Source: Perna viridis | Lineage: Eukaryota | Direction: 5' to 3' | Assembly: GCA_037379345.1 (NCBI GenBank) | Contig: CM074512.1 | Location: 32,426,001-32,490,000, forward strand | Length of the DNA stretch: 64,000 bases | Shown here: one piece after another, positions 4,578 through 54,665 of the stretch | Layout of the letters: each line of letters opens with the position of its first letter | Position numbering within the stretch: the stretch's first letter is position 1 | Notes under the pieces: generated by a model | What the model saw: only the letters and a program-made list of their open reading frames with translations | Database searches by the model: none | Told to the model about the DNA's origin: nothing | Position numbers and translations under genes: made by a program

Positions 4578-7500
4578 TCAAAAGTCTTCAATAGAAATAT
4601 TTCTATTATCAAAACGTCTGTATCGCCGACCTTTGTTACACTCAAGACATTTCAGTTCACCATTTCTTTTTCGTTTAAAAATTATGTGACCTAAAAAGAA
4701 AAGGCCAATTTGAAAATCAATGTAAGTCAATATGTGAATGATATATATCTTTTGATATTAAGGAATTTCAGAAAATAAATATTGGTTTGTTTTATGCTGA
4801 AAAATGCAAATGTGTTCAATTGTGTTTTGCTTTGTAAATTTCTGTTTTAATCATGACAATGTCTTCATAAGTTAACATGCTCCATATCATTGTGCGGTCG
4901 TCGGATTTAATGAATGTATAACACATTTTATATAATTACATCACAATTAGTCGGTTTCCAGGAATTGACGAATCATTTATTTTTCTTCTTCAGTGTTTCT
5001 AAATGTTACCACCAAAAAAAATATGGTTTGTCATTTTTTATGTTCATTGACTTGTTTCCGCTAATTTTAATTTTGAATTTAAAATAAACTGCTGTATTTT
5101 GAGATTTAACCTTTATCGAGAAAAAATACTTCTTGAAAGCCGTTGATATACATTAGCAATAACTTACCAAATTTACATTGAAACCAAAGGCCATGTACAG
5201 GAATGAGAGGTTCATATGACGACACGTCACTGATAATGCTTTTATCGTCATATAAAGTGAAGACATGGAGGTCATTTCTTAGAAAGTTTTTAATGAGCAC
5301 TTGCCTACTAATGTCATATGCCTTGCCATCTGTAAGAAATTCATATGGTTTGTGAAACTTTGCTTCAAAAGATATATAACGTTTGCCTAAATGTTTATCG
5401 ACGCCGTCTTTTTTCATCTTAAAGAACAAGTTAAGTTTACTCATTCTGTCCAACTCTGAAGCAATGTCTTCGATTTCTTGACTGCTGAAACATATGCGAT
5501 TCTTCAAAATAAAGCTTTCCAATTTATCAATATCATAATCATCTATAACTCCGCGCGTTGACTGTTTTTTGCCTTCTGAAGCTTCGACAGAAATTCAACC
5601 TGGTTTCTAATTGTGGTTACCTCGAAACTTGAAAATGATGTTTTGTCTTTTTGTATTAAAATTGTTGACAGGAAATCTCCATCTGTTGATTTTAAATCAT
5701 AAAAAATTTCTTTGGTGTTCATTTCACTTGAGTTGTAGGTTATGTTTTAACCCTTTCCAAAGCACACAGCCTTTCTTTGATCAAATTACCATATATATGA
5801 CTTTTGTAAATTGGCTTGTCACAGGACGGACATCTGAGGAGTTCAATTAGTGCAAATTTCTGTTTATCATCAATTTTTTTGTCTAGAACGTTTACATCGA
5901 ACAAATGACCACACTCTTCTAGTTGAATAAAAACTTTGTCACCGAAAGGCTTACCCTTAAATATTTTTAAAAGTCTCTGTTTATCACAAATTACACAAAA
6001 ATTTGGACATACTTCACCACAAATACCAATGCATTGGTGCTTACAAATTAATATTTCACTGCAACGCATATTGCAACGAGGACAATCGCATGGTTCGAAG
6101 CACTTTTTTGTACATTAATAGTGAGAACATTTCCATGTACAATCTTCGATGCACTGAATACAAGGTTCTTCGCATGCCTTCAGACACGAACTATCTTGAC
6201 TGCATGTAGTTTGACATGGCTTTGTGCAAGAGAAACGGGTTGAACATTGAAAGGAACATCCATGGTTACAAACCAACTGCTGTCTACAAATATAATCACA
6301 CTGTGTGTGGAATTTTCCTTGGATGCAGGTCCCACATGGGCATAAGAATAGTTATTTTGTTAGATGAATAACCTTGAAGACGAGGATATTTACAGAGTGA
6401 AGCGATGTACATAGCTTCGTGATTGTTAGAATGACTCTTCATGTCTTGCTCAGGTGATTCCTTCTGCAATTGGTTTATGAAAAACACATTTTTTGAAATA
6501 CCTTTAAAGTCGTTGTATCCCATGACAACTTGATTATTTTGAAGATCGGGATATATTGTCTTGACAATTTCGCCTATCGTAGGTCGCATTCTGTGCTGGG
6601 TGTTCAAACAACAATTTTCTATTTTATTATTAATCATTCTTTCAAACAAAGATACCTCGAGGCCAAATTTTCCTGCAAGCTTATAAACTGTTGGAGACGG
6701 TTTTAATTGCTGATGATCGCCAATCAGAATCAAATGCTCGCATTTGTTACTTAAAGTTGCTACAATATGGGCCTCCAATACTTCAGCGCCTTCTTCAACA
6801 ATAATTACCCTAGGCCCAATGTCTTTCCGAACGTTTTGGTATTTTGCAGCGCAGGTTGTAGTCATTCCCAATACTCCAGCTTGTTTCATCATTTCTTTGT
6901 CTTCTTGTAATTGTACCTCCACATATGCTTAGCAAGCGTCCCTTATTTGATTTTCAAACTTACTTATTTCTCTGTTTATTAATTCGCAATATCTCTTTTT
7001 CCATGCCTTATACAGACGCCATCAATCTTTCGTTGTAAGAAACCAAACATCGCTTATCGCTTCCTCTTCTTCCTGGCTCATTTCGTCAGTGTTGCTCAAT
7101 TCATTCCTGATATTCTTTCTTAATCTTTTTCTTTCATGACCCTGTATTTGCCATCCTCGGACATTTTCAAACTAATCATTACCATTGTTCTCCCCTTCTT
7201 GTGATACGTTAAAGATGACTGTTTTCTTTTCTAGTCCTAATTGCCATAGCATATCATGCACATGATTAGTATCCTTATTTGTATCCTTTTTTGTTAAATC
7301 AATGTCGTCTGACTCGTTTATATCTACATCTGTTTGCCTCGAACTCGTACCTACGTCAACGTCATTTTTAACTTCAACGAAATCACTTGCATTACAGCTT
7401 TCCGTGTCTTCATTTTCTTCTTGGTTATTGTTCGGTCGGTTTTCGTCTTCACAAACATCCTGAATACTGTCTTTCTAGAAAAAAAAACCCAAACTGAAGC

Positions 7501-10500
7501 CATTTACTTATTGCTGAATATCTGCTAGCTTTTCCCAAGCAATGATTGGCAGATAACAATATGTTTGCAAACCCTCTAACAAGACTTTCATAGTGACACC
7601 AACTTATTACTTCCCCGAAGCAATCTTCGTGAATGATTTCTAATTATGCATTTTTCACCCTTTCAGCTAGTTTATTTATGGTAAGCCTCAATGTATCAAA
7701 TCTATCTCTCGAAATTAGTTTTTCTTTATGTATCAATTGTTGCAATGCACGACTGAGAGGAAATTGGCGCCGTCGATTTTTTAGACCGTAATTCTGCATA
7801 AGTTTTGAAGAAATTCGTCCTCTTACACGAAGAAGATTGCCCTTGCAGAAGGAAATAATACCCTCTAAAAACTGATCTAAAGCATGGTTAATATAACAGA
7901 CAACTAATATTGGTCGTCTGTCCATCTTTTCGAAGCTGGGACAAAATTCCAGGAGTGATAGTTATGGATAAGAGCTTTTGCTATTTTCAATCCCACATAT
8001 GTTTTGCCTGTACCAGGCGGGCCTTATATTAATGCGAATTCTTTAGTTAATGCATGTTGCAGCGCCTTAAATTGAGACCTGTTGAGTTTTAAAAGTTCTG
8101 ACTCAGGCCACAACTGCAGATTTAAATGTTTGATATCGTCAGCCTTTTTTGTAATTTCTAGGAATTCAGTTTGCGTTGAATCTAGATTTTCTTCAACCCG
8201 TCGTCCTGGCTCTTTTGTCTCATCCCTAATCACTATAGAATCATCGACTAGAGGTCTTAGATCAAATGCATCTTTAATTGGATTGTTCATTAAATATAAG
8301 GGTGGTGCTATTCCAGACTCACAAGTTACTAAGTATTTTTCAAATGACATTTCTCCTGGTTGAATGCTTGTAAGACTCTGTAAAATGTGTCTGTAAGCTT
8401 CAAAATACGCATTCGTTTCGGCCATAACAGAAGTTAACTCAGGTATCCGCGGCCTCGACAATTCTGATTGCTTTCCAAAACTAAGTACAATTTTTCACCC
8501 TTTTTCGCATCGTCTCGGTTGACGACTGTGGCAAAAGAGAACGTCTAAAAATTGTCAGTTGATATGCATAACAGCGAACCGTAAATAAGTCTTTTGCTTG
8601 GCTTCCATCTGATACTCGAAAATCTATGACAGGAAAACCGAACCACGTAAGAAAGCCCATCATTCTGAAAAGTTGGAGTTATCACCTGAGCATCTGTGTA
8701 TATCCTCAAATCTCTAAATTTTGCCAGTTTTTCGGTACTTTTGATTGCCTGGAGATATTGTTGGACGCCTTCCCAGAGGGGGGCAATGAAGTCTTCCCGT
8801 AGAAGTCGATACTGTACATCAAGATAGTGATCTAAGTCTTGATATATCTTCCACGTTCTATATTCCTTCGCAAAAAAGGCCTTGTGTCCATATTTAAATC
8901 AGCGTCTTCCGGTAAAACAGGTATGGTAGAATAATGTTCTGGTGGCTTTCTTTTATCGTCTCCGTCCTCTTCGTTTGGTACGTTTTTTTGATAGAGTTTC
9001 ACTCAGAGAATTCTCACCGATGGTTTTCCATTTTTTTTTTGGCTCAGACATTACCGTGGGAATGTCGATACTGTATTGGTTTTTCATGTTATCAACCACT
9101 TTTGACACTATTTCTGTGATCGCATTCAAGATGAAAACAGCATCGGGTATAGCTTCTTTCATCGTAAAGCATATGGTCATAATATCAAGAAGTGATTTTT
9201 CAGCAATGAACTCATGTTGATTTGAGCATGCTATAGAATTAAGAAACTTAAATAAAGTACATGTAATGAATCGAAAATTTTACAAACGTTTCCAGAACAC
9301 TGTCTTTGTTTTGACGCTGAGCTGCATTAACACGCCTTAGCAGAACAAGTCAGTATAATACGCGTCATGTCTTCACTGCGTTTTTTTCGTCTAGGAGTTT
9401 TTCTAATGCATTCGGTTTTGAAGTCAAACTGAACAAAACTTCATTTGAATCTTTCTGTTTTAATTCCTGTAGTCTAGTGAATCCATGGCTGACTTTCCAG
9501 TATTTTTCTTCTTCGTTTGATTCACTTCTCCCACCATAGTAATGTCTGTAGGAAAATGTGTATAAAATTAGTAGAAAATCACATTGGCATTTATATAATA
9601 CTTCTGTATTAATAGAGATGTTATTTGTTCTTAACACTAAATTTGGTTGCAAATTATGTTATCTATTAAAGATAGTATTTAGTTTAACTTATTTTTCATG
9701 TCAAAGGGATGCTTATATAATGTCTATATATACATACATCAATCAAGATATATTTTACAAAGCTTAGATAAGAGGTCAAGAACGTTGGGCTTAGGGAGTG
9801 TTGATTGAGATGCCAGAGTAGGTATTTCTCTTGATTAAAGTCTAGATTTTGACAAATCATATACATATGTACATGTAAAATACCGCGTACAATATAGACA
9901 CACTCAATATTTGCAGTCGTTAAGACTTCCGATAGAGAACGTTCACTTCATTTAAAACCAAATTAAATGTTAATCTATAAGCACAGCCAATTAAAAATAA
10001 GAATTGAACTTTAAAAAGATATCTATCAAATATCAAATTTTTATTTACAAGACCCTTTCATAATAACAGCAAGCTGTTATTTTTGGTGTAAAAAGAGTAG
10101 GCACATACCCTTTCTTTTAATTTTGCAGTCACAATACAATGTACTTGTTTTTAAATTATTTGCTAATACCATATAAACGGAAAATTTACGGCTCCACACT
10201 AATCCTATCAAAAGTAACGAATCTGCAAGTATTCTGAATTTTAAATTAAAGTCATGTATAGCTTGAAATAAAGCCTATGCAGTAATATTTCATTCATGTA
10301 ATTAAAACACATGATTTTATTCCTTGGAAAAAGTATTTTGAACAAAAAGTTGTTTTTCAAGTAATAGAATATACGAGTTCTGGTTAATCACAAGTTGGTA
10401 TCAGTTTAATGTAATTATAAAGTGCTCATGATAAAAACCCTAAGACTTTTCTACACTTATAAGAAGCCGGATATCCTCATTTTGAAATGTTTAAAGTATT

Positions 10501-11314
10501 TTTCTATGCTTGATTTAAATTAAGTGCATTGATATAAAAAAAACCAAAGACTAAAGTCTTCCAAGCCACTTATCGTCAAATATTCTAAGCCACTGGTTTT
10601 GACTTGCTTTAACATCAAGGCGAATTCAATGCTCTACTAAACTTAACTCCTAATCAATCAGTGTTTTTTTTTCATTTTCACCATAAACCCTGACGTTACA
10701 GAATGTTCAATGCTAACCGATCATTTCATCTTATAATGTAAACTTCCCGCTCTCATACAAGTAAAAAAACACATGTAGAACACGCGTGCATGGTATTTAA
10801 GAGGTACATTTTGATCTCGTGTAAAGCTAGAAATGCCGGTTCTGTAGCACCTATCTGCAACATAAGGTGGTGTCATAACATAATTATAATAATGAAATCA
10901 CAAACAAATGTACAGTAATTAAATTACGAGTGCAAAAAGTCGCTAACAATATTAACGACTTAAAAAGAATAAACTTTTATTCAAAATCTCGAAAGTGCAA
11001 AATCGACACTGAAAGTTTAATTGTTTATCCTATTGAAATGAGTGTATCCAACTTCAGACCAGCATAGAATTATAAAGTATCTGCATCTGTTATTTTAAAT
11101 ATGCTAATTTGTTATGTAAATTTGAGAAAAAAAGTGCGCTGTATTTCCATGCTTTAATAGTAAATATTGTGTTTTTACTGTATCGTCTTTTTAATTTTTA
11201 CCGTTCTGTCCTTCTTCCTCGATCAGGCCCACGATATGGTCTCCTAGCTCCTCTTGCATTCCTTCAAAACATCGTTTCAGCGAAATGTATGTTATTTTTT
11301 AAGCTTTAAATAAA
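4578..11314 (-). pseudogene. ZNFX1: ZNFX1-like pseudogene (copy 1); exons 11314-11202, 9545-5168, 4690-4578
   Basis: Collinear fragments homologous to copies 2-4 (YWKVSHGFTRLQEL, AETNAYFEAY, VVCYINHALDQFLEGI, GDHQQLKPSP, WFQCKFG). Lesions: ATG TTT TGA at codon 3 (ATG 11272), TAA just before Walker A GPPGTGKT (8024-8026), several frameshifts, internal deletion at ~6342. Splice phases (2, then 1) match the intact copies. Confidence 0.92.
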
Positions 11315-11990
11315 CTGAAATAAAGTATTCTAGTATTTTGTTCCTACGTTTTCGATAAAGTTCAAGTGAATAGTATACCAGAGTTGAAATCGGAGTATCA
11401 ACAGAATGAAAATAAATAACTGTTCTGCCGAAAGTTACCTTGTATTTATGTCTCTTTTTTTACCCAATTTTCGCTAAGAAATGTTGAAGATTTTTTAAGG
11501 GACATTTTACATTCAAGTATTCCATAGATGATTTTAAATTATAATAATTCTATAAGTAAGAAAATTATCAATATAATTTTAAACCATAATAAATTTACCC
11601 TCTTCCTCTGTTGTATTCTGATTCCTCCATGAGTGGCACACATCACATATTTACCTATGACAGGAAAACAAAACCAGAATATTCTCCATGTTTCTATCGT
11701 GTGATATATGTTTATTGTATAACTGTTTCTTACACAATTTACCTAGCAGATGAATATGTCACATTCATTTGTTTGCATAATTCATACAATTTGTAAACAA
11801 AAAGCACTTAGCAAAATGTCCGACAGCGTTCACTAAAATGCGAATTAGATTAAAAGCCAATTGTACTGCCATTTGTTCCGATTATAAAACTCATTCCGTA
11901 GCCTTTATCATATCTTTGAATATTACTGATGAAAAGATCAACAGACAATGAAATTGGAGGGATATGAATTAATTTTATTATATAAAATCT

Positions 11991-37632: not shown

Positions 37633-40600
37633 ATGAACACAGAGAGGTGATTATACATTTTTTGGTATAGATTAAACAAAAGTATAGTACATATTTGCAT
37701 AAATTTTCATTTAAAGAACAATATATTTGGAATGTTTTTATTTAAAACCTTCAATGCATTAGTATTTTTCATTAGAAGGTATGTACTGGTAAGAAAAATA
37801 TTATAATCATTCCTAAAGTAATCATTATTATTGTCAAATAACCAACAATTACTCACTTTAGAAATCAATAATTGTATACAATATAACTTTATACTGTGTG
37901 CCAAATATCTTTTCATTGATAAACGACCACAAAGTACAATTCAAATTAAATTCGCAGTTGGTAAGAGACTTTACGTCACTGTTTAAAGGTAAATATGCAA
38001 GTTGAATAATGCAATTTTCAGAAAACTCCGTATCTGTAACTTTATCTATCGATCTACGTTCTTTCCTTTTATATCATCCATAATTTTGCAAATTGACAAT
38101 TACTCGTTGCATAAAAATTCAAACAATATATATAAATTGATTTAGTACATGAGTGCTTTGATTTAACTTCGTTAATCAACAAGAAAACAGGTATATTAAA
38201 ACGCTCCACTCCGTCAATTTGTCCGTCTGTCTGCCTCGCGTAGGGGTACATATTTTGTTAAATCTGTTACTCAAAAACTATTAAACCAATATTATTTTTA
38301 TATATTAACTTACTACAATGAGTATTAATAAATTGAAGTTGTGAACTTCCTATTACAGAGAAATTAAATTTATTTTTCGTATATTTTCAGCATGTTTAAC
38401 TTTGAGATTTTTAGCTGTCAATTTTAATTCGAGTATTTTAAAAATCATACGAAAAGTTACATTACATTATGTGTTTAGATGATCTCCAGTTATCTTTACA
38501 ATCTCATCTCCATAAAAATAGAATAAGTGATCCCTTTTCATAGTCAACATTGAGAGTATGTACATATGTAAAGTCAACAACCATGATTTTTACAAATGCA
38601 TCCTATCATATCAACAAAGGGATTCATTCTAGAACACAGAGTACTCCTAGCAAAGTGTTCTCTCAAAGTAAACAAGGTAATTATGCTTATAACAAACAAT
38701 GAGGGAATTTATAGCTCTTGTTTCCTCTTAGTTCCCTGTTTCCGTCTTGCCTATCGAATTACTCACTTGTATGCTGATCATTGTAAAAGTGTGATTTCTG
38801 GAACAAACATACTAATCATATAAATATTGCAAATTTCGATATAAGAACCAAATTTCGGAAGCAAAAAGAAGTCTAAAAGCAGTTCGCACAACCAAACATA
38901 GCCCATTTTCGGAAAAGTGCACATAGCACACAAGAAAAACATTATAAACGCAGATTGTGCAAATTGGTTTCAGGGGCGGATCCAGGATTTCAGGTTGGGG
39001 ACATAAAAAGAATTAAGTGCCTGCCGAGCGAAGCGACGCAAGAAAATTTTGCGGGTAGAGTTTGTGAAAATCAGTGTTTCATGCAAAACCAATCCAATTT
39101 TAGGGGGCGTATGTCCGTTTCACCTCTTTGAATCCGCGCCTGCATGGTTTGGTTTTATAATCAAAATATTACTATAAACTCATTCTCATTACACCCTGTT
39201 TGTCTGCGTCTGTCCAAAGTAATTTCTAATAAGCAGCTTGTAGCCTTATTATGAACCTTTGTGGGATACAATATAACAACATGGAGACACATGTTTGGAC
39301 ACAATTTGTAGAAATGACGGTTGTTGAGCTTATACGTTTTTTTTTTCTCAGCAAAACATGATTGCAACTCCTCCTCAACGACTTGCAGGATTGTGTGTCA
39401 AAAGTGCTTAGTCTATCCGCCATAAATTATTGTATCCAACATGAATCAAATGTCCACAATGGTTCCTTAATGTACAGGGTTCAGCAGGCTGCTACGGGGA
39501 TACTAGTCCCGTTAAAAGGCAATGTTTACGAAACGATATACTCACACACGTTAAAGTCCTGCAAAATACAAATGTATAAATATCGAGATCCTTACTAAAG
39601 CACTATGTACAGTGTTGTACTGGGTTCAGAATGTCGTATTCGGCATTTTTGGTTCCTTGCACTCTGCGACGTTTTTAAGTACATGTACGCATAATTTGTT
39701 TAGAGGTTCAGCAATTCGAGCATAAGTACCAGTAAAGAGATTACTTAAAGATAATACAGATACGATCTGAACATGTACAGCGAGATAAGTACCTATTAGA
39801 ATGAAGTATTAATATTTACTTGAACATGCACGCCTTTTGTCTTTAACCCAAAGAAACAAAGAAAACAATCTAGTTACCGACAACTTAATTTTGTCTGTTG
39901 TCAAGTTACCGGTTACTGTCATCTTTGGCTATCAATAAATGCAGCCAAGAAAGGGATTTTTTAAGGATGATGTACGTTTCAAATTTGTTCCAATGATGAA
40001 TACTGATGTACCTAATATGAGGTTAAATAAGCCATCTAAACTGTAGAATAAAGTAATCGATCTTGTCTGTATTTGCATCCGCCATCAGTTTACCCCCAGT
40101 GATGAAGCAGCCGGCTTGATTTTTATTGGCTCTCAAAATTACCCCCCTGTTCCTCAAAATTACAGATTGACTTACTTTTGTTTTGACCACGAATCCCCTC
40201 AATATTCCGTTAACCTTTTTTTCATTTTGAGTGTTCAGTAGCAGTAGATAAGGATTATTTAGGGCGAAATATTTACAGCTATCGTAAATTTCAGTGGAAG
40301 AGATAAAGGACCAACCAGAGAAAGGGATAGACGACGTGGTAGAGAAAGAGGAAATCACGAGAGCAGGTAAATGTAGAGATTTTATTTAAACAACATGCAG
40401 GTTTAACTGATATGGAATGAGTATGTTCAATTTTTATCACTATGAACATTGTAAATCAGATTTCAACGACAGTAAAACTTATCATAACTTTCCTCATTTC
40501 CTAAGATTTTGAAGAGGACGAGGGCTCAATATATTCAGTCGATTTACACGAACTTGTTTTTATATATAAAACTTCTCTTATCGTACCAGCTTAGGTGTAT

Positions 40601-42356
40601 AGATTGTAGAGAGCACAGGAAAATTTTTTAATGTCATGCTACCCATTAGATTTGTCTGATATATTTCTTTATTTGGACGAAGAATAGCAGACTCATTTGA
40701 GACGTATCAATATGCAAGGTTAGCGTTCAGGAATACGCAAATAATTGGTACATTTCAAAGTCAAACAGTGCTCAAAGCTTTATTTGCCTTTGACACTTTG
40801 TTATCATTTATTTAACAACAACAGAAACCAACGTGGTATTGAAGTTGATGACAATGGAACACCTAAGGGAAGAAAACACACTTATAGAGGAAGAAGAGGA
40901 GGAAGAGGGATGTTTAGAAATGGTCAGAGGTATTAAGTTCAAGTCGTTGTAAGAATCATAGAAAAAGGAACAAATATGGTGAAACACAACAAATACACCA
41001 TCGTAGAATACCTATAAACATAGTAAATGCTTACAGAGATCACCGGAAGGTCTTCATTAAGTGTCAACAGCTTCAAGAAAGCTCTGAAAGGCACCGAAAA
41101 GTAAAGAAATCCAGGGTAACAGAACGATGATAATCCTTCAAAAATAACATAAAAAGTTAAATAGTAACAGGAGACACATTAATGACCAGCATTGATATTA
41201 GGGCGAAATCGTTCATTTCTAACCAGGTATCAGCAGACAACTTGGAAATAGTGAAAAATAAAACATCCGAAGTTAGATTAAGGCAACGAGAAATCAGTCA
41301 AAACATGTTTCATTCATAAATTATTTGTTGAAAATTTGGATTTGATCTTGAACTTGATCAATCGAAATGAGAAAAATGTCAAAAACCCACGGATATGACG
41401 ACACATTTTCATCCAAGAAATGTTTATATATCTAAAATGACCACCATTTGATCCCTGCGTCATTGTTTTTCTAAGAAAAATGTTTATCAAAATTTAAGAA
41501 CGAGTAAGAACAAGCAGTTATTTGACTTTAAAGGGTTCATTCGAAGTGCATTTCTACTCATTTGTGGAATCTGACCTATTTCGTTAGTTCAAATAGTCAA
41601 ATTATCGAAATTGTTTTTTTCCTACCATGTTTCATCCACTAGCTAATTCTTACAGAGACTGACTCTTAAAAAGAAACATTACATGACTAATTAGATAAAT
41701 ACGGAAGCTTATGTTTTTAAGGTTTTTCTTCCGTGTTACCACAGAGACTGGCATTTACAGATAAGTAAAAAAAGCTCGCCTTCTTTGTCGTCAGAAATGC
41801 CGTTGTCTGAAAAATCGGAACCTTTTGACTTTTTGATTACATGGGGGGATTTGGTAAATATTTGCTATCGTAAAGGGGTTCATTTTTGGCCATCTGACAT
41901 CATGGAACGTAGAGGATTGTAGCTTTAACTTTAATCGGTGAAGTAAGATTTGGCTTGTTGCATTACTGAATTGACGGTCCGATTCGATTAAACTTAAATT
42001 TACCATAACCTGTTCACGCAATAATTTTGACTATTGCCCTACTACCAATTTAAATTCTCATTGATTTTTCTTTTCACTGAAGCTGCTGGATAAAATTATT
42101 AAGTTTTTGAAAACTCACTTAAGGTAAAATGTTTTAAATGTTAAACTTCCAGTGTCATTTTGTACGAATTAGACCATTTAATTATGCCATGTGTAGCTGT
42201 ACCAATCGAGACACTTGACTGACGCGATCCTTTAGCGTCTTTAATTGAATGACTAGAAAACTATGTAAAGATTCTTTCATTGCGGATACCTTCATGGTAA
42301 TGAGTAGATGGAGAAAGTACTATGTATATGTAATGTGTAATTGACCTAACTGCATG

Positions 42357-42422
<66 letters not shown>

Positions 42423-45400
42423 CAAAGCAATGAAGAAGAGGATGACAGTTACGTGCCTAGAGGAAGAGGTAAATCAACCAGAGGAGGTAGAGGGTATAGA
42501 GGAAGGGGTGGTTCTGTACGAAATGATGAGAGGTAATTTACACAGAGAACAAAGATTAAGTTGACAGAGTAGGTTTGTAAGAGCGGCTTCTTAAATATAT
42601 TTTGTATACACAGTAATATTATTTAGAAATACTATCTGTCAAAAATTGTTCATGACTGGTTTCTATTCACCATGGTGCCATATTTTAAACGCGAGTTTGC
42701 GTATACTTTTTTTTATCATATTTCAACGTGTTTAAGAGTAATCAAGGGAACCAAGGTTATAGCGGTAATCAAAAGAATGTAATCCAGGGACAAAGACCAG
42801 ACATGGAAAACAGACATACACAACAAAGAACACAAAGTAACTAATATCATACATACAAAGTAACAAAAGTAAATGAGCAACTCGGACTCCACTAAAAACT
42901 GGGAGCATGGACCAGGTGCACCGGTAGGGTAAGCGTCCTCTGCTTTTCTAGAAACACCCGCCGAGTTGCTCATAAAAAGTCAAGTCCGGGGTAGACAAAC
43001 GAGGAAAGGTAAACTATGACCCGTTGAATAAATCAGTTTTCATGGTGCTGATGGATGCATCATAACGGTCCACGAGTTTCGATATGTCTTTTTTAGCACT
43101 TTAAAGGAAAATCATGATAATCATTATGCCTCTTCTTATTTTAGGACTAAACATTGGAGAAAGGTCTTTGGATTTACGAGGTTGACTGAGTACCAAAATG
43201 GGGAAGCAAGCGACTTAGTGCTGAAGTTTGTAAGCGAACAACAACTATTGAAGGAAGTACTTCAATGTGACGACCACAGTGATGAAATGGTAGAGCTTTT
43301 ATTGAAATGCTTATCAAAAGCCTGTTGTTATAGTATCTTAAAACAGCATGTGCAACAAATTCTTATTATACTCCAAGCCTCAACATTTTTTAAAATGACT
43401 ATACTACAATTAATTCTAAAAATTACAAAGCTGCCAGTTTCTGAATTAGACAAATATGAAGCATCATTAATCAGCATAATAAATTTAATCAAAGAAATGA
43501 AATCAAAAATGCCGAATACTATGTTTGAAGTTATTGGTATAACAACAGTTCTGGAAAAAGTTGTGTCTCGTGTATCAGCATGCAGCACTTTACAATCCGC
43601 GGAGATTGTTGCGGCTTTTAAACGTTTGGAACTATCGAACGAAGAAGAAATGCAAGAAATGTCATATGAAAAAGATCATTCCCATAAGCGTACATTTAGA
43701 CCTGATGAGGAGGATCAAGAACCACCAGAAAATTTCCATGAGATTCCAGTGTTCCCAGAGGAGCATGATATTTTGGTTAATATGAACCCTTTCCTCCGTA
43801 TGAACAAACGTTGTGGAGGTTACCAGGACCTTAATCATTACTTAGATGTACAGTTTCGACTGCTACGGGAGGATTTCATAGGCCCACTTAGAGATGGAAT
43901 TCAACAGTACATTGCGTTGTTAAAAGGAACAAACAATGGCGATAAAAAAAGTAAAATGCCAAAAGACATACGAGTATACACGGATGTCCAAGTCATAAGT
44001 TCGGTCTGCAATAGCAGTGGCTTGTGTCGCAGAATTTCTTTTTCTTGCCCAGGATTCAAGCGCATTCATTGGGAATCTAGCAAAAGATTGCTTTTTGGAT
44101 CACTTGTCTGTCTATCTAATGACGATTTTGACACATTATATTTCGCAACTGTCGGGAACAGGGACTTTAAAAATTTGCGAAAGGGTTTAGTAGACATAAA
44201 ATTCGAAGATGACTCAAATACGATGGCGTGTCTTCCAGAAAATGCTATTTTCAAAATGGCGGAGTCTAGTGCATTCTTTGAGGCATATCGTCACGTTTTG
44301 TCTGGTTTGAAGACATTGCTGAATGGAGATCTTCCTTTCGAAAAATATATAGTACACTCTAAAGCCAACGTGGATGAACCGGCTTACATACGTCGAAATC
44401 CGCATGCTATGTTTGATCTCAGACCTTTAGTTGATGATGACGTTGTATTAGTAGAGAAGACAAAAGAAAACATAAGATCACGTTGGAATGGATATAACTT
44501 CTCACCAGAATCAGCTCAAGCGCGAAATGTTCCTGTTATGAATTATGACCAGTGGCCTTCCGCAGATGCACTTCATCTGAACGAATCTCAGTATAGTGCT
44601 GTCCAAATGGCACTCTCTAAAGAGTTTGCAATTATACAAGGCCCCCCAGGAACGGGTAAGACATACATTGGTAAGAAGATAGTCAAGGCGCTCTTACACA
44701 ACAAGGATATTTGGTCTCCTAATGTAGATGAAAATAAACTCCTTCTTGTTGTTTGCTACACCAATCATGCCCTTGATCAGTTCTTAGAAGGAATTGATGA
44801 GTTCTACAAAGGAGGTATACTGAGACTAGGAAGTCGAAGTTCAAGTGACGTGATGAAAAGGCATAACATCAATACAAAGAGATTAGAATTGCGCAGGAAC
44901 CGGAGAGCACCAACAGCGCTGCATCGTGAGAGAGTGAAAGCTAGGGTTAAAAGGAATACACTAAAAATACAGATTAATGCAATAGCAGATAAAATAGAAA
45001 AAGCCAAAAGAGATGTACTGCATGAGGATACACTACAACCCTTCATCGGAACGCAACTTAGGTTTCAACTGACACGTGGCTGCAATTTACTTATTAATGA
45101 GATGAAGGCTCATGGAATTTATCCAAGTCGTGGATTTGAAATGTGTGCAATTTTAGAGTGGCTAGGGTATGGAAACTTGACTTGTGGTAAACAAACGCTT
45201 CATTTACCCACGACGAACTATGATCCCGAAGAAGATGATGATGATGATTATAATGATGATGAATACATCGATGCAGAAGATGAAGTAGACCGAGAAATGT
45301 TAAACAGAATTCCAGATATATATGACGAAAGGAACGAAGAAATTGACAAAAATGCAGCAGTTCTCGAAATTTCAAAGTTGTTTGCAGCTTTGGGCTTATC

Positions 45401-48400
45401 AAATGACAGGGTAGCATTAGATGTCTCTAGTATTGGATCAAAACGTTCATACACCTCTGGTGAATGGCAAATGGATGCAAAACAAAGAAAAAGGTTGAAA
45501 AAAACAATACGTTACGAACTAGCGTCTTCTGATAGAATGTCAATGCGAGATGTGTACAGAATTCAGAACATTTGGACATTAAAACAGAAAGATAGATGGC
45601 GACTTTACAGATTTTGGATTTTTCTTTACTGTCAGACGCTCCAAGAACAGATTCGCGACGCAGAAAAGGTATTTCAAGATGCATGTGACTTAGTAAACGA
45701 AATTCAATTACATGAAGACAAAGAAATCATGAAACGTTCAACTGTCATTGGAATGACCACAACTTGTGCGGCACGGTACCAGTCAGTTTTAAAAGAGATA
45801 GGACCTAAAATAGTCATTGTCGAAGAGGCTGCTGAAGTTTTAGAGGCACACGTTTTAACTACACTTAGTAAATATTGTGAGCATCTGATATTGATCGGTG
45901 ACCATCAACAGCTGAAACCAAGTCCAACGGTGTACAAGCTAGCTAAGAACTACAACCTTGACTTGTCACTCTTTGAAAGATTAATTAACAACAAGATGGA
46001 CTTCCGTTGCTTAGCTTTGCAACATAGAATGAGACCAGAGATTTCAACAATCATGAAAATTATCTACCCAAAGCTACAAGACCATAATTCTGTAAAGAAG
46101 TACCCGTCTATAAAGGGTGTTTCTACCAATGTGTTTTTAATAGACCACAGTGAACAGGAAACTTCAGATGAAGACATCGTCAGCCATTCGAATACTCACG
46201 AGGCGGAGTTTATTGTAGCTTTATGTAAATATCTATTACTCCAAGGATACAAATGCCACCAGATCACTGTTTTAACACTGTACTCGGCTCAGTTGCGCGA
46301 ATTAAAAAACCGCATGCCAAAAAAATATTTTGACGGGTTACGGCTCACAGTTGTTGACAATTATCAGGGCGAGGAAAATGACATAGTCTTACTCTCATTA
46401 GTAAGAAGTAATACAAACAGAATTTCTGGTTTTGTCAGCATTGAGAATCGTATATGTGTTGCGTTTTCTAGAGCAAAATTGGGACTATTTATTATCGGAA
46501 ATTTCCGCATGTTAGAAAGAGCGAAAGACAGAAAAAGTGATTTATGGAAAAAAATTGTGTCTTTAGCAGAGGACAAAAATATGATCGGTCCAAATCTCTT
46601 ACTTAAATGTCAAAACCACCCAATGGACGAGGGAATTGGTGCGAGTTCTGCAGCGGACTTTCGAAAAGCGCCAGAAGGAGGATGTATGAAACCTTGCGAG
46701 GCCCTGTTGAATTGTGGCCATGCCTGTACTAAAGCTTGCCATGTATATGACAAAAACATAAGGAATATACATGTATGAAACCCTGCGAAAGGCAGGTTTG
46801 TGGAATTAAAGGCCATAAATGCACTCGCACTTGTGGAAAGAAATGTGAACAATGTATGATTAAAATTCCAAAAGTTATTCCGGGCTGTTATCATGAACAG
46901 GATGTACCATGTTCCCAGGATCCATCGACATGGAAATGCATGGCTCAATGTAGACGTATACTGTCATGTGGTCATCCTTGTCAGAGCAAGTGTAGTGAAC
47001 CACACACAATACAGTGCCAGTTTGATGTCAAGAAAACTGCCCCGTGTGGTCATTTCATTAAAGTTAGATGTTTTGAAACCTTTACAGCAATATGCTCTAA
47101 ATCTTGTGATGCATTTTTAGATTGTGGACATCCCTGCACTGGAACATGTGGTGAGTGTTTCAGTGGTAAACTGCACAGACCGTGTAGACAAAAATGCAAA
47201 AGAACGCTTGTTTGTGAGCACGAATGTTCAGACAACTGTTCAAACTGCCCTCCCTGTTCAAGAATTTGCCAAAATAGATGTATTCACAGCGTCTGTCAAA
47301 AATACTGTGGAGAAATATGCATCTTATGCATTGAACAATGTGAATGGCGCTGTAAGCACTTTGTCTGTAATAAGCTTTGCTATGAACCTTGTGAACGACC
47401 TCGTTGTAATAATCCCTGCCTGAAACAGCTTCCATGTGGGCACGACTGCATTGGTTTATGCGGGGAAATGTGTCCTCGCGTCTGCCGTGTCTGCGACAAG
47501 GAAAAGGTTAAAGAGATACTTTTCGGAACAGAAGATGATGATGATGCCCGATTTGTCCAATTGGAAGACTGTAAACATTTCTTTGAAGTTGGTGGACTAG
47601 ATCAATGGATGGATCAACCAGTTGAAAGTGATGAAAGAAAAGTTTCAATCAAGCTTAAAGAATGTCCGCTCTGTAAAACTCCAATCAGAAGAAACTTAAG
47701 GTATGGCAATATGATAAAGAGTACTTTGAGAGATATTGAGAAGGTAAAAAAACAAATCCAAGGCGGTAGGCAAAATATAACTGCAATACGGCTTTCGATC
47801 GAGAGAGATATCCAGAGATTTGGAACAGAAGATCAGAAGGCAATTTCTGAAATATATTCAAGAAAGAGACAGAATGGTTTGTCTTCAGTCCAATCCTATG
47901 AAACAGTGAAGAATCAGTTACTGTTTCTGCAGAAGCTACAAGATCTCAAAAGACAACTAAAACACAGACATTTAGAAATTACGCCATGCAGAATGTTTCA
48001 AATGACTAACCAGGCAGTTTCAAATCTAAGGTACTTCATCGTCCAGGAACGGAACTATTTCACCGACCAGGAAATAGCCGATATTATGGAAGAAATCGAT
48101 AGGTTGACATTTCTGTTGCAGTATTGTGAGCTGGAAAAGTATATAGAACGTACGACGTTTAAGTTTGTCAAACACAAAGCTGCAACATATGATATGACAA
48201 AGGATTGGCTAACTAAGGACAGACGACTTTCAGAAACAGAAAAGACATGTATTAAACAATTTCTAAAAAGTATGAAACATTTGATAAAAAAAGATGGATT
48301 AGGAATAACAGACAAAGAAAGGGAAGAGATTGTTCGTGCCATGGAGCTGTCAAAAGAACATTGGTTCAAATGCCCCAGTGGTGAGTTGTATTAGGATTAA

Positions 48401-50202
48401 TTGAAAACGTATATATATTAATTTCACTGTTATTTTTTCCATTTTTTAAACGAACAGTAAAACGCATAAAAAGTATCCACAAAAGTCGAATTATAAATTA
48501 AAAACATATTTATCAAACAAAACAAGTTTACGAATATGATAAATAAATTTCGTGTTATACAATTAACAAATTATTTTCACTTCGAGAAAAATAGTAGTTC
48601 AAAAGAAAACTGTTGTCGACGCAATCGGTATAGTTTCGCTTTTTACCCTTTAACCCCAAAGACGCTCTTTCATGGAAACCTGATTGCATTTCTGTTTCTC
48701 GATTGGCCAAATACTGATAACTTGGGGGCGTTCGAAAAAACTGTATCGAGAAATAAAATTGCGTGCCATGTGTTATTTCCTGAATAAAATATAGAAACTT
48801 ATAAGTAAAAAAATCAAATCAGATTTTAATTAGTGCTTCGTTTTTACAAAAGCTATAAAGTCTAATAGAAATTCGTCGCGTTAAGGTGCTGCGAATAAAC
48901 GTTGCTCGCATATCTAGTACTTTTTCCCTGCGTAGACAATATAATATAAATGACATGTAGCTAAGAGTGTGATAAAGCATTTTTTATCCCGAGAAAATCG
49001 TTGACAATCCGAGGCGTAGCCGAGGGTGGCAATGTTTTTTTCAAGGAGTAACAAACTATCACTCTCTAAGCTATATGTTATTTATTTTATTATACTGAAT
49101 GTTCAGTTGTAATGCTTTTTCAAAGTAAGCCCTAAAAATCAGTTTTGTATATTTGGCTTTTGTCATTATTTTCTTCATTAAAATTGTTTTATTTTCTTTT
49201 CAAGTTTGCAGTCATATGAAATTATGAACGTTAATTGTGGATCGCACTCCTTTTTTTGTGACCTCAATGTATCGTTGATGGACTTTTTCCTGCTTACAAA
49301 CAGAAATGTCATTAAGATTTTTTTGTTGTTTTTTCTGTTTTCAAGTTTGCCAGTTCACACCTCAATCACTTTTTAATTTGACAATACACTAAGAAATGTT
49401 TGGGTACAGATTCGTAGTTGATTTGGCATCATGAGTAGAAAGATATATTTATAAGTCTGTTAATCGATGTTGTGTAAGTTATAATGGTCGTTTCGCATAT
49501 TGATTCCTTCAAACGCAGGAACTGCTACCTAATTTTTACAGCAACCGCTTTGACTGCCCAAATGTAATAGACAAAAACCAAAAACAAAAAACAAAAACGT
49601 GTGTTAGAGCAGATTATTAAGCTCGTATTGAACCAATCAAAATTCATCAAATTGACATGAAGTATAATAATATGTACTATTATTCTAACGCGATTTCCAC
49701 GTGATTTTCATTTGAACTGAGCAAATAAAATATATGGCAGTGCTCATGTGAATCGGGTGAAGGTACATTCACACGAATTTCACGTTAACAATATTTTGCA
49801 TGTTTAATACCTTCTTCATTTTCTTTTGTTTTGGGATTCAATTACCTCTTCAGCTTAAAGGTATGAATGCTTACATGTATTTCAGCCAATGCAAAGTAAC
49901 TGTGCTAAATATTGTGAGTTTTGCCCCAAAATATTAAACGATATTTCACTATTCACTGCGGCTTCCAATATTTTTCCCAATTATATAATTGTTTTCTTCT
50001 AGGACACGTATATGCTATAGGAGAGTGTGGAGGAGCAACGGTAGAAAGCAGATGCCCAGAATGCAATGCGACGATCGGTGGGGCAAGCCACAGATTGAGA
50101 GAAGACAATGCGCTTGCTTCAGAGATGGACGGAGCAACTCATGCAGCTTGGTCGGAACAAGCCTACATGGAAAACTATGACCCATTTGAAATTAGATTTT
50201 GA
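37633..50202 (+). CDS. ZNFX1: ZNFX1-like copy 3; join(37633-37646,40295-40366,40825-40929,42419-42532,43145-48380,50003-50202); one 1-nt frameshift at 46752-46756; 1913 aa if repaired
   Basis: The 1198-aa and 539-aa ORFs are consecutive halves of one ZNFX1. All 5' junctions are phase 2 with GT-AG; the last junction AGT G|gtgagt..tctag|GA CAC is phase 1 and gives WFKCPSGHVYAIGECGGATVESRCPEC. Total with one added nt is 5742 = 1914 codons. Could be a very young pseudogene. Confidence 0.85.
38971..39142. mobile_element. Small MITE-like element
   Basis: Imperfect terminal inverted repeats CAGGGGCGGATCC / GAATCCGCGCCTG. No clear target-site duplication. Confidence 0.5.
40295..40366 (+). CDS. ZNFX1: Copy 3 micro-exon A (72 nt, phase 2-2, Arg/Gly-rich)
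   Basis: tttcag|T GGA AGA..AGC AG|gtaaat; GRDKGPTRERDRRRGRERGNHES. Confidence 0.75.
40825..40929 (+). CDS. ZNFX1: Copy 3 micro-exon B (105 nt, phase 2-2, RGG)
   Basis: caacag|A AAC..CAG AG|gtatta; NQRGIEVDDNGTPKGRKHTYRGRRGGRGMFRNGQ. Splice sites are weak. Confidence 0.7.
42361..42416. repeat. (AT)28 microsatellite abutting a splice acceptor
   Basis: 56 nt of perfect AT repeat followed directly by AG (42417-42418). Confidence 0.97.
42419..42532 (+). CDS. ZNFX1: Copy 3 micro-exon C (114 nt, phase 2-2, acidic plus RGG)
   Basis: atatag|T GAT..GAG AG|gtaatt; DQSNEEEDDSYVPRGRGKSTRGGRGYRGRGGSVRNDE. Confidence 0.78.
42734..43078 (-). mobile_element. Penelope-like element 3' terminus, antisense in a copy 3 intron
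   Basis: Aligns with 1482-1807 and is highly similar to the reverse complement of 52699-52926; ends ~65 bp before the acceptor of the large exon. Confidence 0.85.
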
Positions 50203-51329: not shown

Positions 51330-51540
51330 ATGCTTTTTTTACTATGTCTGGCATTGGTTTTGTTTTGTGTCCATGGCAGTTTGGACACTGCGCTCTTTTG
51401 AGGTTGTCTATTTCTGGCATTGTTTTTGTTTTGTGTTTGTAGCCGTTCATACTCTGCATTCTTCTGAGGCTTGCTATGTCTGGCATTGTTTTGTTATGTG
51501 TCCGTGGCCCGTCGGACACTGTCTGCTTTCGAGGCTGGCC
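51330..51540. repeat. Degenerate ~66-bp tandem repeat (3 units)
   Basis: TCTGGCATTG recurs at ~51347, ~51413 and ~51479; the minus-strand ORF shows repeated NKTMPDI / KTKTMPEI / KTKPMPDI. Confidence 0.7.
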
Positions 51541-52431
51541 TGGAAAATAAAGATATTAAGTTTTACATTTTATTGGTCCAAAATGTACACAGTGATCAGT
51601 GATAAAAATATATTATTCTAATAATTTTAGTTGAACTTTATCTAAATATTTCTTTATTTAATCACTGCTTTTCGTTTATTTATTTTAATTAATAAGAATT
51701 TAACTATTTACTAAGTTGCATTAAATGAAACTTAAACTATAAACTTCATTTCTTAAATTCTAATTATAAAAATAAAAGTTAGAAATCCAATATTAAATTT
51801 AAATTGTTTACGTACCTGGTAAATAAAGATATTAAGTTTTACACTTCATTGGTCCAAAACGTACACAATGATACCAGGGCTGGGTTTAGCTCCTTTAAAA
51901 ACACAGTATCACATGCTGTCGGACCAGTCTTTACAAATGAAATCCCTTAATTTTATTCAATTAGCAAAGATGAATATTCATTACGCCTTAGTATATGAGA
52001 CTTTTGTATCTAAGATTACGTTTACTCAAACTTACTTTATCTTTTATGTCTAATACTGTTTTAATTTATTTATCCTTAAACAATGGATACTATTATTTAT
52101 AGCAATTAAATACACTTTACCAATGTTTGTAAAGTGTCAGTTGTTTACAAAAAATTATTGGCAAGACAATTAAGCAAGTACCAAAGAATTCAAACCTATT
52201 TAGTCTCTTGTCACAGTTATATAATATACAATATACACATATTTCTTTCTTTCGGCTACATTTACAAATATGTCAAGACTTTATCAATTTAATTGAACTA
52301 AAATGAAATTTTATTTTTAATTTTTGTTTAATCATATAGAATTTTACTGCATCACAGATTACCACATATTTTTATTTTCGTGCTGTTGGCCTGACCTTCG
52401 TATACTTAAACGAAATTTGATTATTTAGGTG

Positions 52432-52617
52432 TTTCAGCATAGTTTTGCTTTTACAAATATTGATAATCTAGTCATTTCAGCATAGTTTCAGCATAGTTTT
52501 GCTTTTACAAATATTGATAATCTAGTCATTTCAGCATAGTTTCAGCATAGTTTTGCTTTTACAAATATTGATAATCTAGTCATTTCAGCATAGTTTCAGC
52601 ATAGTTTTGCTTTTACG
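52432..52617. repeat. 54-bp perfect minisatellite, ~3.4 copies
   Basis: Unit TTTCAGCATAGTTTTGCTTTTACAAATATTGATAATCTAGTCATTTCAGCATAG starting at 52432, 52486, 52540 and 52594. Confidence 0.95.
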
Positions 52618-52698
52618 AACATTGAAAGTTTGAAGTTCTCGGAGGTCAGTAACTATAATAAAAAATGATTTCATTATTAGTTGTTGTGATTGTTACAA

Positions 52699-52926
52699 GG
52701 CGGGTGTTTCTAGAAAAGCAGAGGACGCTTATCCTACCGGTGCACCTGGTCCATGCTCCAAGTTTTTAGTGGAGTCCGAGTTGCTTATTTGCTTTTGTTA
52801 CTTTGTATGTATGATTTTAGTTACTTAATGTTCTTGTTGTGTATGTCTGTTTCCCACGTCTGGTCTTTGTCCCAGGATTACATTCTCTTGATTACCGCTA
52901 TAATCTTGGTTCCCTTGATTACTCTT
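52699..52926 (+). mobile_element. Penelope-like element 3' terminus (5'-truncated)
   Basis: Reverse complement of 42734-42962 with few substitutions; starts at GGCGGGTG and ends GGTTCCCTTGATTACTCTT. Confidence 0.85.
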
Positions 52927-53129
52927 ACAGACTTTCATCGAGAAATAGTCTGGTAAAGAAAATAATACGTAACGGTTGTAAGTTATAGAAGTTCTGAAGA
53001 ATGTTTTATGTTTTTGTACAGATTCTAAAATTCATATTCTTACTTTGTTGTTTAATCAATTTAGAATGAAGATCAGAATTTATATAGCAGTTACCAGAGC
53101 CTTTAAATATAATATGTAAAGCCTGTTAG

Positions 53130-54236
53130 CATATGCATTTATCTTGCACTTCCGCAGGAAAATAGTCCCATTGGCATACCCCATGAAGGTTTAAATGCAT
53201 AGAGTAAGGTCCATTTTATAGGTTACACCAATAAACAAACACAATAAGCAACGTTTACTGCGAACTAAATATGCTGATTAATTTGATTGATCCAATTCTA
53301 ATCTCAGTATCTGTTGTCACTGTCGATATATTCAAGTTGCCTATAAATGCTTTATTCTTATAATAAACCATTTTATGTTAAGATAGAAATGAAAACTGTA
53401 CGAGGTTATAAAGAGTCATCAATCATAGAAATTGAAATATAAAGAGGAATGATAGCATCCGGGCTGTTGGTATTGGCGGATCCAAATGTTTGCCAAAAAA
53501 AAAGCTGTGGTTCAGCTATTATTTGCCGATCATTTTATTCGTCAATTTAAAAAAAATGGTAGCATAATTCCCGAAACTATCCTATTATAGGTTACAGACC
53601 ACCAATTCAACCAATGAGCATTTGGAACGTACGCAAAAATAGTCCTACGCAGAAATTACCCCTGTTCCTCATAGTGCTGTGAAAAAAGTTCTCATCTTAT
53701 TTTAAAAATTTAAACAGTTTCTGAAAGGAAAAACATTTCTGTACATTTTATAGGTGCATTTTGCTTCTTGTGATGTGAAGCCTAATCTCCATAATGATTT
53801 TTAAATATACCCCTATCTTGTGAAAACACTGGGATTTCCCATGCTATTTATCGACCCTTCACTTCCGGTGACCAGTACTGCACTGCAAGTCTGCTAACCC
53901 CACATGCCATTCTGAGGATTGTGAGCTGACATATGTAGAATCATGCTGATATATAGTCATCTGCAGGTTAAAGTTAAGGTAAAGTCCAGAGAAGCCATTG
54001 AATATTGTGAAATTAGCATAGAAGCCTATGGGAAGTGGAATTAGTGGTTTTTAGCCTATATCACCCAATGCATCGTGTATTTTTATTTCGGTTAACGCTT
54101 CGTGACATCGGAAGCCCGGAGGTGACAAATAAAAATAATAACTTTGCTTATTGTGTTTGTTTATTGGCATATGAATTTCGATAATGCATTTCCCAGGAAT
54201 AGTGTCAGTCTGTGGTCTGGTGATATTGCTTTTGTT
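53130..54236. repeat. Inverted copy of the 25226-25990 repeat with a ~0.5 kb interruption (~53585-54070)
   Basis: Homology blocks to 25226-25380 resume at 54070-54236 after unrelated sequence. Confidence 0.7.
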
Positions 54237-54329
54237 TTGTAATTATCATTATATTTGTCTATTTCGTCATGTGTTATGATAATAAAGATGTAGGTATGAT
54301 TTTATTCTTCCAATAATTTTATAATCTAA

Positions 54330-54665
54330 CTGACAAATAGTGTGTCTTTTTCGATCGTCAACGACCTGATTAACAAATAGTGTGTCCTTTCCGATTCTCA
54401 ACACGACCTGACTGACCAGTTTCGTCTCCTTTTCGAATGTGAACATGACCTGACCGACCGGTTTCGTCTCTTTTTCGGTTGTGAACAAGACTTGACTGAC
54501 CGGTTTCGTCTCCTTTTCGGATGTGAACATGACCTGACCGACCGGTTTCGTCTCTTTTTCGGTTGTGAACAAGACTTGACTGACCGGTTTCGTCTCCTTT
54601 TCGGATGTGAACATGACCTGACTGACCGGTTTCGTCTCTTTTTCGGTTGTGAACATGACCCGACT
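54330..54665. repeat. 42-bp minisatellite, ~6 good plus 2 degenerate units
   Basis: Unit ACTGACCGGTTTCGTCTCCTTTTCGGATGTGAACATGACCTG; gives the 14-aa periodicity of ORF 54267-54656. Confidence 0.95.

Follow-up and report, generated by a model that had tools for sequence, protein, structure and literature searches.

Is the arginine- and glycine-rich N-terminal tail of a mussel ZNFX1 protein adjusted by splicing, or has it simply been lengthened by exon duplication? The question is raised by a stretch of 64,000 nucleotides from Perna viridis (GCA_037379345.1, contig CM074512.1, positions 32,426,001 to 32,490,000), referred to below as the window and numbered from its first letter, which contains four copies of ZNFX1 (copies 1-4). 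In the 5' part of copy 3, a first-pass annotation had pointed to three small exons, here named A, B and C, and had proposed that their inclusion or skipping sets the number of RG motifs in a disordered tail. The explanation preferred here, to which a probability of about 55% can be given, is that an RG-encoding exon was duplicated in tandem and that the copies are mostly spliced in together, providing a longer, flexible and basic tail ahead of the ARM-helicase part of the protein. Our overall verdict is one of ordinary exon duplication within a known disordered tail.

Three candidate exons inside a phase-2 intron

The three exons were found on the sequence at the places first described, each bounded by AG and GT, with a length that is a multiple of three nucleotides (nt) and in phase 2-2, and their boundaries are taken as candidates. 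Exon A (40295-40366, plus strand, 72 nt) is rich in R, E and D and has two RG pairs and no RGG, so that the description of all three as RGG exons does not hold. Exon B (40825-40929, plus strand, 105 nt) encodes an acidic patch followed by a tri-RG stretch, with four RG and one RGG, and exon C (42419-42532, plus strand, 114 nt) an acidic patch followed by two tri-RG stretches, with six RG and two RGG; a second in-frame AG would begin exon C at 42428, reducing it to 105 nt. The name micro-exon had also to be abandoned, since microexons comprise 3-27 nt, plus a class of 28-51 nt, in PMC12626424; the upper limit of length is put at 27-30 nt, and at 51 nt at most. As for the exon end of the form N-x-x-(x)-AG gt, it is common to the three, and part of that likeness is imposed by the donor consensus.

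The flanking exons of copy 3 are compatible with any usage of the three candidates: the exon carrying the ATG (37633) has a phase-2 end at 37646 and the main exon a phase-2 start at 43145, and, as had been predicted, all include/skip combinations keep the frame open (8/8). With all three exons the predicted tail comprises 103 residues, with 12 RG, 3 RGG and a net charge of +11. When motifs are classified by the usual definition of di-/tri-RG and di-/tri-RGG, with spacers of 0-4, exon A contains di-RG only, B one tri-RG and C two, and no di-RGG or tri-RGG occurs in any of the eight combinations. The mean hydropathy of the tail (0.20-0.30) falls under the charge-hydropathy boundary (0.41-0.47), which classes it as disordered according to a crude predictor. 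The frame, similarity, ortholog and hydropathy analyses support the proposal that duplicated exons, all in frame, lengthen an RG-rich N-terminal tail predicted to be disordered. A Pfam scan of A, B and C gave no family, and when the window was scanned in six frames for stretches rich in R and G, only five matches were returned, namely A, B, C, the GRGRGRGRG of copy 2 and an exon of copy 1. The latter two had been noted at first pass and were recovered: GRGRGRGRG is located inside the copy-2 main exon, and the single copy-1 RG exon is a candidate of 60 nt in phase 2-2.

The suspicion that B and C are duplicates was strengthened by similarity tests, in which ten pairs were compared. The protein likeness of B and C (score 59) was reached by 1 of 3000 shuffles (p = 0.0003) and their DNA likeness by 3 of 3000 codon shuffles (p = 0.001); the likeness is colinear and goes beyond composition. 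When RG-rich windows of other ZNFX1 N-termini were used as a control for this pair, 1/78 and 3/80 proteins scored as well. Moreover, A aligns in DNA to the 3' two-thirds of C (3/3000 shuffles, p = 0.001), while A and B show no significant likeness (p = 0.76 for protein, 0.25 for DNA). A relationship by tandem duplication of a symmetric exon is therefore indicated for B-C by protein and DNA and for A-C by DNA only, and not for A-B.

The phase of the exons has to be considered together with that of the intron that hosts them. The main-exon acceptor is in phase 2 in all five paralogs examined (copies 1-4 and the one at C2:69.2 Mb of the 723 Mb assembly G000), a phase-2 AG is also present in the C2:36.16 Mb paralog, and this sister paralog has a single RGG exon candidate of 63 nt in phase 2-2 (G000:C2:36160306-36160368, L005). 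A, B and C are all 2-2 because the host intron is in phase 2, and an exon duplicated inside it must be 2-2 to survive; without duplication, the probability of two internal phase-2 junctions would be 0.06-0.11. In human genes, according to PMC3632108, of 118 neighbouring exons with high similarity 108 are symmetric, and 2-2 exons make up 5.79% of alternative versus 4.55% of constitutive exons, which corresponds to a likelihood ratio for alternative splicing of about 1.3. The phase of the host intron and these human frequencies together mean that the symmetry points to duplication and says little on skipping, for which it is weak evidence. Judged on sequence, a single exon of this phase-2 intron was probably duplicated in tandem to give A, B and C.

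The host gene and the tails of its relatives

Copy 3 belongs to ZNFX1 by its Pfam matches, which comprise the ZNFX1 domain (PF25396, E 1.1e-32) and a UPF1-like SF1 helicase (AAA_11, PF13086, 6.8e-28; AAA_12, PF13087, 1.1e-38), and its domain order is the same as that of human ZNFX1, an SF1 helicase and RZ-type E3 ligase. The main exon (43145..48380, plus strand) encodes an N-terminal helical part, the ZNFX1 domain, the SF1 helicase (AAA_11, AAA_12) and a Cys-rich zinc-finger stalk, putatively of the NFX1 type; repeats rich in Cys and His can readily be seen there in the translation, and Pfam gave no match. The last coding exon (50003..50202, plus strand) encodes the C-terminal RZ-type E3 zinc finger (PF20173, E 1.8e-16; 59.9 bits against a cut-off of 27), with a Cys-His spacing of 21 residues, like the human C1860/H1881. 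The best named matches of copy 3 are Mytilus proteins, with 63% identity; its own full-length protein was not among the 120 matches listed of 1084, and none of 435 candidates scored when shorter proteins were sought with the main-exon start.

The RNA data consist of four raw stranded runs (X21-X24) from two studies, summarised in bins of 491 nt that are mostly intron; a wider search of sequencing runs gave 20 matching ones in six studies, none of them recorded as RNA. The assembly has a frame break of one base near 46751, inside an A run of the copy 3 main exon, and an extra A is carried there by 4 of 5 reads in X24 and by 0 of 1 in X22. The reading frame in the X24 animal is thus likely intact, with the break being an assembly error or an allele, and the possibility that copy 3 is a pseudogene is disfavoured by the four X24 reads that restore the frame. 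The candidate first coding exon (37600..37646, plus strand) has the ATG at 37633 (MNTE-), a strong T-rich acceptor and a phase-2 donor, and faint sense reads are found in its bin. Upstream, 36430-36660 is a candidate promoter with a non-coding first exon, with sense reads in bin 36491-36981 in three of four runs and a possible GTAAGA donor near 36653; a TTTCnnTTTC motif at 36455, one of 15 such in the window, resembles an IRF site.

Tails rich in R and G are common in the family, being found in 80 of the 120 homologs listed (of 1084) when the first 260 residues were searched for a window of 34 residues made up of R+G to 30% or more. A tree of 43 sequences (38 of the 225 proteins fetched plus five own copies; alignment of 1019 columns; root placed on three vertebrates), which omits copy 1, being broken, as well as the paralogs on C10, C3 and C1, clusters copy 3 with P0001, P0144 and four Mytilus proteins with a support of 1.0. 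Tails in this ortholog group measure 84-226 residues (324 in P0126, which is probably over-extended), and those of the sister mytilid clades 32-36 residues in 8 of 10 proteins, the remaining two having 48 and 79. Internal repeats with a period of 71-109 exist in four of the five ortholog tails tested, and one-to-one homology of A, B and C with the ortholog tails was not accepted (lowest p 0.034 of 15 tests). Because the ortholog tails repeat internally yet none aligns convincingly to A, B and C, the tail expansions look lineage-specific. Furthermore, where two Mytilus isoforms differ by 1 or 6 residues, the difference can be accommodated only by tandem acceptors in phase 2, and this applies to either end of a 71-residue repeat, so that this repeat is likely a 2-2 unit too; both repeat units are present in 7 of the 8 Mytilus models showing the tail.

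Joint inclusion, skipping and other explanations

The mechanism proposed starts with an ancestral RG exon in the phase-2 intron, which would have been duplicated in tandem into A, B and C; included together in most transcripts, these would produce a predicted disordered tail of ~103 residues with 12 RG pairs. RG/RGG tracts make weak multivalent contacts with RNA and are sites of methylation. By analogy, the tail may add low-affinity multivalent RNA contacts, possibly arginine-methylated, helping the helicase and E3 ligase to capture and cluster RNA, and its length would, for the most part, vary from paralog to paralog and from species to species rather than from one splice isoform to another.

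Expression of copy 3 is low, with low sense coverage in all four runs. In X22 the sense depth is 1.58 in the A bin and 1.55 in the B bin, compared with 0-0.27 in repeat-free intron bins, and in X21 it is 0.40 and 0.59, compared with 0-0.15; in both runs A and B are not below the first coding exon. The repeat-dominated intron bins 38946-39436, 40910-41891 and 42383-43364 were left out of the background. Transcription across A and B is supported in two of the four runs, and from such depths we infer majority inclusion. A second locus as the source of the reads assigned to these exons was considered and rejected, as A, B and C have one match each in G000, a count that is a lower bound.

Several observations weigh against joint inclusion of duplicated exons. 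The bin depths on which it rests amount to few reads, and the depths over A and B in X23 and X24, at 0.13-0.30, are within the intron background of 0-0.5. The bin of exon C is unreadable for transcription, being swamped by a dispersed repeat, abundant and highly transcribed, which lies in the last intron on the 5' side (42734..43078; depth about 3000-4800, with reads running on into unlike sequence) and attracts thousands of reads from other loci. No splice junction of copy 3, for inclusion or for skipping, occurs among the 15 joints listed, which all fall in the intronic repeat; a further 92 were outside that listing. The acceptors of B and C are the weakest of the gene, with 10 and 9 pyrimidines of 19 (that of B being A-rich) versus 17 in the first coding exon and 15 in the main exon, and disordered exons are enriched among alternative exons (PMC3632108). 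Concerning the duplication itself, the A-C likeness is absent at the protein level (p = 0.98), where A is unrelated to B or C, and the flanking introns hold no convincing remnants of duplication (lowest p 0.035 of 12 tests). One RefSeq isoform of M. californianus, X3 (P0123), is without 71 residues of the RG repeat. Moreover, two preprints (bioRxiv 10.1101/2025.10.14.682297, 10.1101/2025.09.05.674436) ascribe the clustering of human ZNFX1 to ARM dimers, to contacts between proteins and to ubiquitin, and the tail would therefore be a modifier at most. Finally, joint inclusion does not explain an excess of 5' reads in two runs, itself made of few reads: X21 has about 5 reads' worth over the four 5' bins between 36491 and 40929 (about 3x if exon-confined) versus 0.06x in the main exon, and X22 has 9-11x over the 5' exons (exon-confined) versus 1.25x; X24 shows the opposite 5'/main ratio and X23 no clear excess.

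The alternative that survives best, though it is a doubtful one, is close to what was first proposed: A, B and/or C would be regulated cassette exons, or B and C mutually exclusive ones, so that a tail of 6-103 residues with 0-12 RG pairs would tune RNA binding and clustering. The eight open combinations and the weak acceptors of B and C, the latter behind an (AT)n repeat, agree with it, and precedents exist in the methylated, isoform-specific RG exon of CSR-1A (PMC8270938) and in FXR1 (PMC7147106), where splicing acts on a disordered domain. Such openness is, however, a consequence of a symmetry imposed by the host intron and only about 1.3x commoner in alternative exons, and the bins of A and B are equally deep in the two informative runs. 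The Mytilus isoform X3 bears on the same point. Its deletion starts between residues 27 and 46, within a block identical in both repeats and off the inferred junctions at 79 and 150, and it concerns one of eight models; it may be a two-exon skip, but a misaligned read between identical repeats suffices to produce it, and the hint of skipping is weak. A broader and still less probable version, which we mention as a speculation, is that the mytilid ZNFX1 lineage has repeatedly rebuilt its RG tail from skippable 2-2 exons, with splicing acting as a dial (0-12 RG pairs) for RNA capture and clustering; the Mytilus X3 would then be this dial at work in a second genus.

Quite unlikely is that one of the exons, most probably C, is a decaying duplicate rarely spliced in, whose polypyrimidine tract has been replaced by a microsatellite. 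An (AT)28.5 microsatellite (42361..42417) does stand directly 5' of the exon C AG, where that tract would be, leaving an acceptor made of the repeat plus AG with no T/C tract, and the unreadable RNA bin of C would be compatible with rare usage. On the other hand, the frame of exon C is open, its RG content is the highest of the three, its donor (GTAA) is good and its likeness to B is colinear, and these features suggest selection as coding sequence. Least probable of all is a short 5'-only RNA ending in the intron after B or C and encoding a free RG-rich peptide of less than about 105 residues without the helicase, for although the 5' bins of X21 and X22 are deeper than the main exon, A, B and C are single-copy and read-through of each donor reaches a stop within 1-2 codons, the counts are tiny, possibly include duplicates and come from bins of mostly intron, the other two runs do not repeat the excess, the stops follow from phase-2 GTAA/GTGA donors and no transcript end was called after B or C.

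Known counterparts and neighbouring features

Set beside known systems, the joint inclusion of duplicated RG exons has few novel components: ZNFX1, its disordered tail and the growth of disorder by symmetric exon duplication are already known. Residues 1-140 of human ZNFX1 are disordered and unmodelled in cryo-electron microscopy (PMC13710534). In contrast to the human gene, copy 3 has several paralogs, and its tail, with 12 RG compared with 2-5 in the three vertebrate outgroups of the tree, is distributed over three small candidate exons of probable duplicate origin. Neighbouring exons of the same phase, similar to each other and encoding disorder, like A, B and C, were described by Schad et al. 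2013 (PMC3632108), whose study is human and genome-wide, whereas the present case concerns one mollusc gene and the rarest symmetric class (2,2).

As for the proposed tuning by splicing, CSR-1A of C. elegans is likewise a protein that handles RNA and whose N-terminal exon is RG-rich, disordered and poorly conserved; the two forms, CSR-1A and CSR-1B, come from separate promoters and both methylation and function have been demonstrated (PMC8270938), while the exons of copy 3 are internal and known from sequence. In FXR1, exon inclusion alters the disordered C-terminal domain and its condensates, as the tuning proposal would have it for ZNFX1. The FXR1 exons are, however, conserved and their inclusion has been measured, whereas A, B and C are not alignable to the Mytilus tails; moreover, deletion of RGG alone had no droplet effect (PMC7147106). 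The literature consulted, which included few subscription papers and main texts only, gave no account of A, B and C, of an RGG tail in ZNFX1 or of exons and isoforms of mollusc ZNFX1.

The interest of the locus lies in that ZNFX1 is an antiviral RNA sensor whose structures leave the N-terminal tail unresolved. The mussel paralogs, with an about sixfold range of tail length on a conserved core, offer a natural series for studying the role of the RG tail in RNA capture and clustering. Were exon skipping true, an innate RNA sensor would be under the control of splicing; for the present, the case neatly illustrates a known process.

ZNFX1-like sequences are not limited to the window, as 13 matches were found in G000, on C1, C2, C3 and C10. 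Copy 1 (about 5100-11640, minus strand) is a broken ZNFX1: its 7 aligned pieces contain 8 stops and the frame changes several times, yet the small exons upstream still look intact. Copy 2 lies at 26445-31814, and only the 3' part of copy 4 (minus strand) is included in the window. The dispersed repeat found next to exon C has copies at 52926-52699 (94%) and 1557-1806 (80%), and its first bases are common to the end of a decayed fragment at 34624-35028, which we take to be reverse-transcriptase-like and for which Pfam gave no match.

In copy 4, two RZ-finger last exons stand in tandem (58305-58175 and 57574-57375, minus strand), the one short and divergent and the other canonical and long, each with its own stop and with Cys and His 21 apart in both. 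Annotated isoforms of the Mytilus ortholog end in either RZ exon, both being listed for M. edulis, M. galloprovincialis and M. californianus and the short one for M. trossulus, and two Mytilus models fuse both last exons. A conserved alternative-splicing event affecting the E3 catalytic domain is likely here, and it is better supported than that of the N-terminus. Between copies 3 and 4, minisatellites with periods of 66, 54 and 42/84 occupy 51342-54665.

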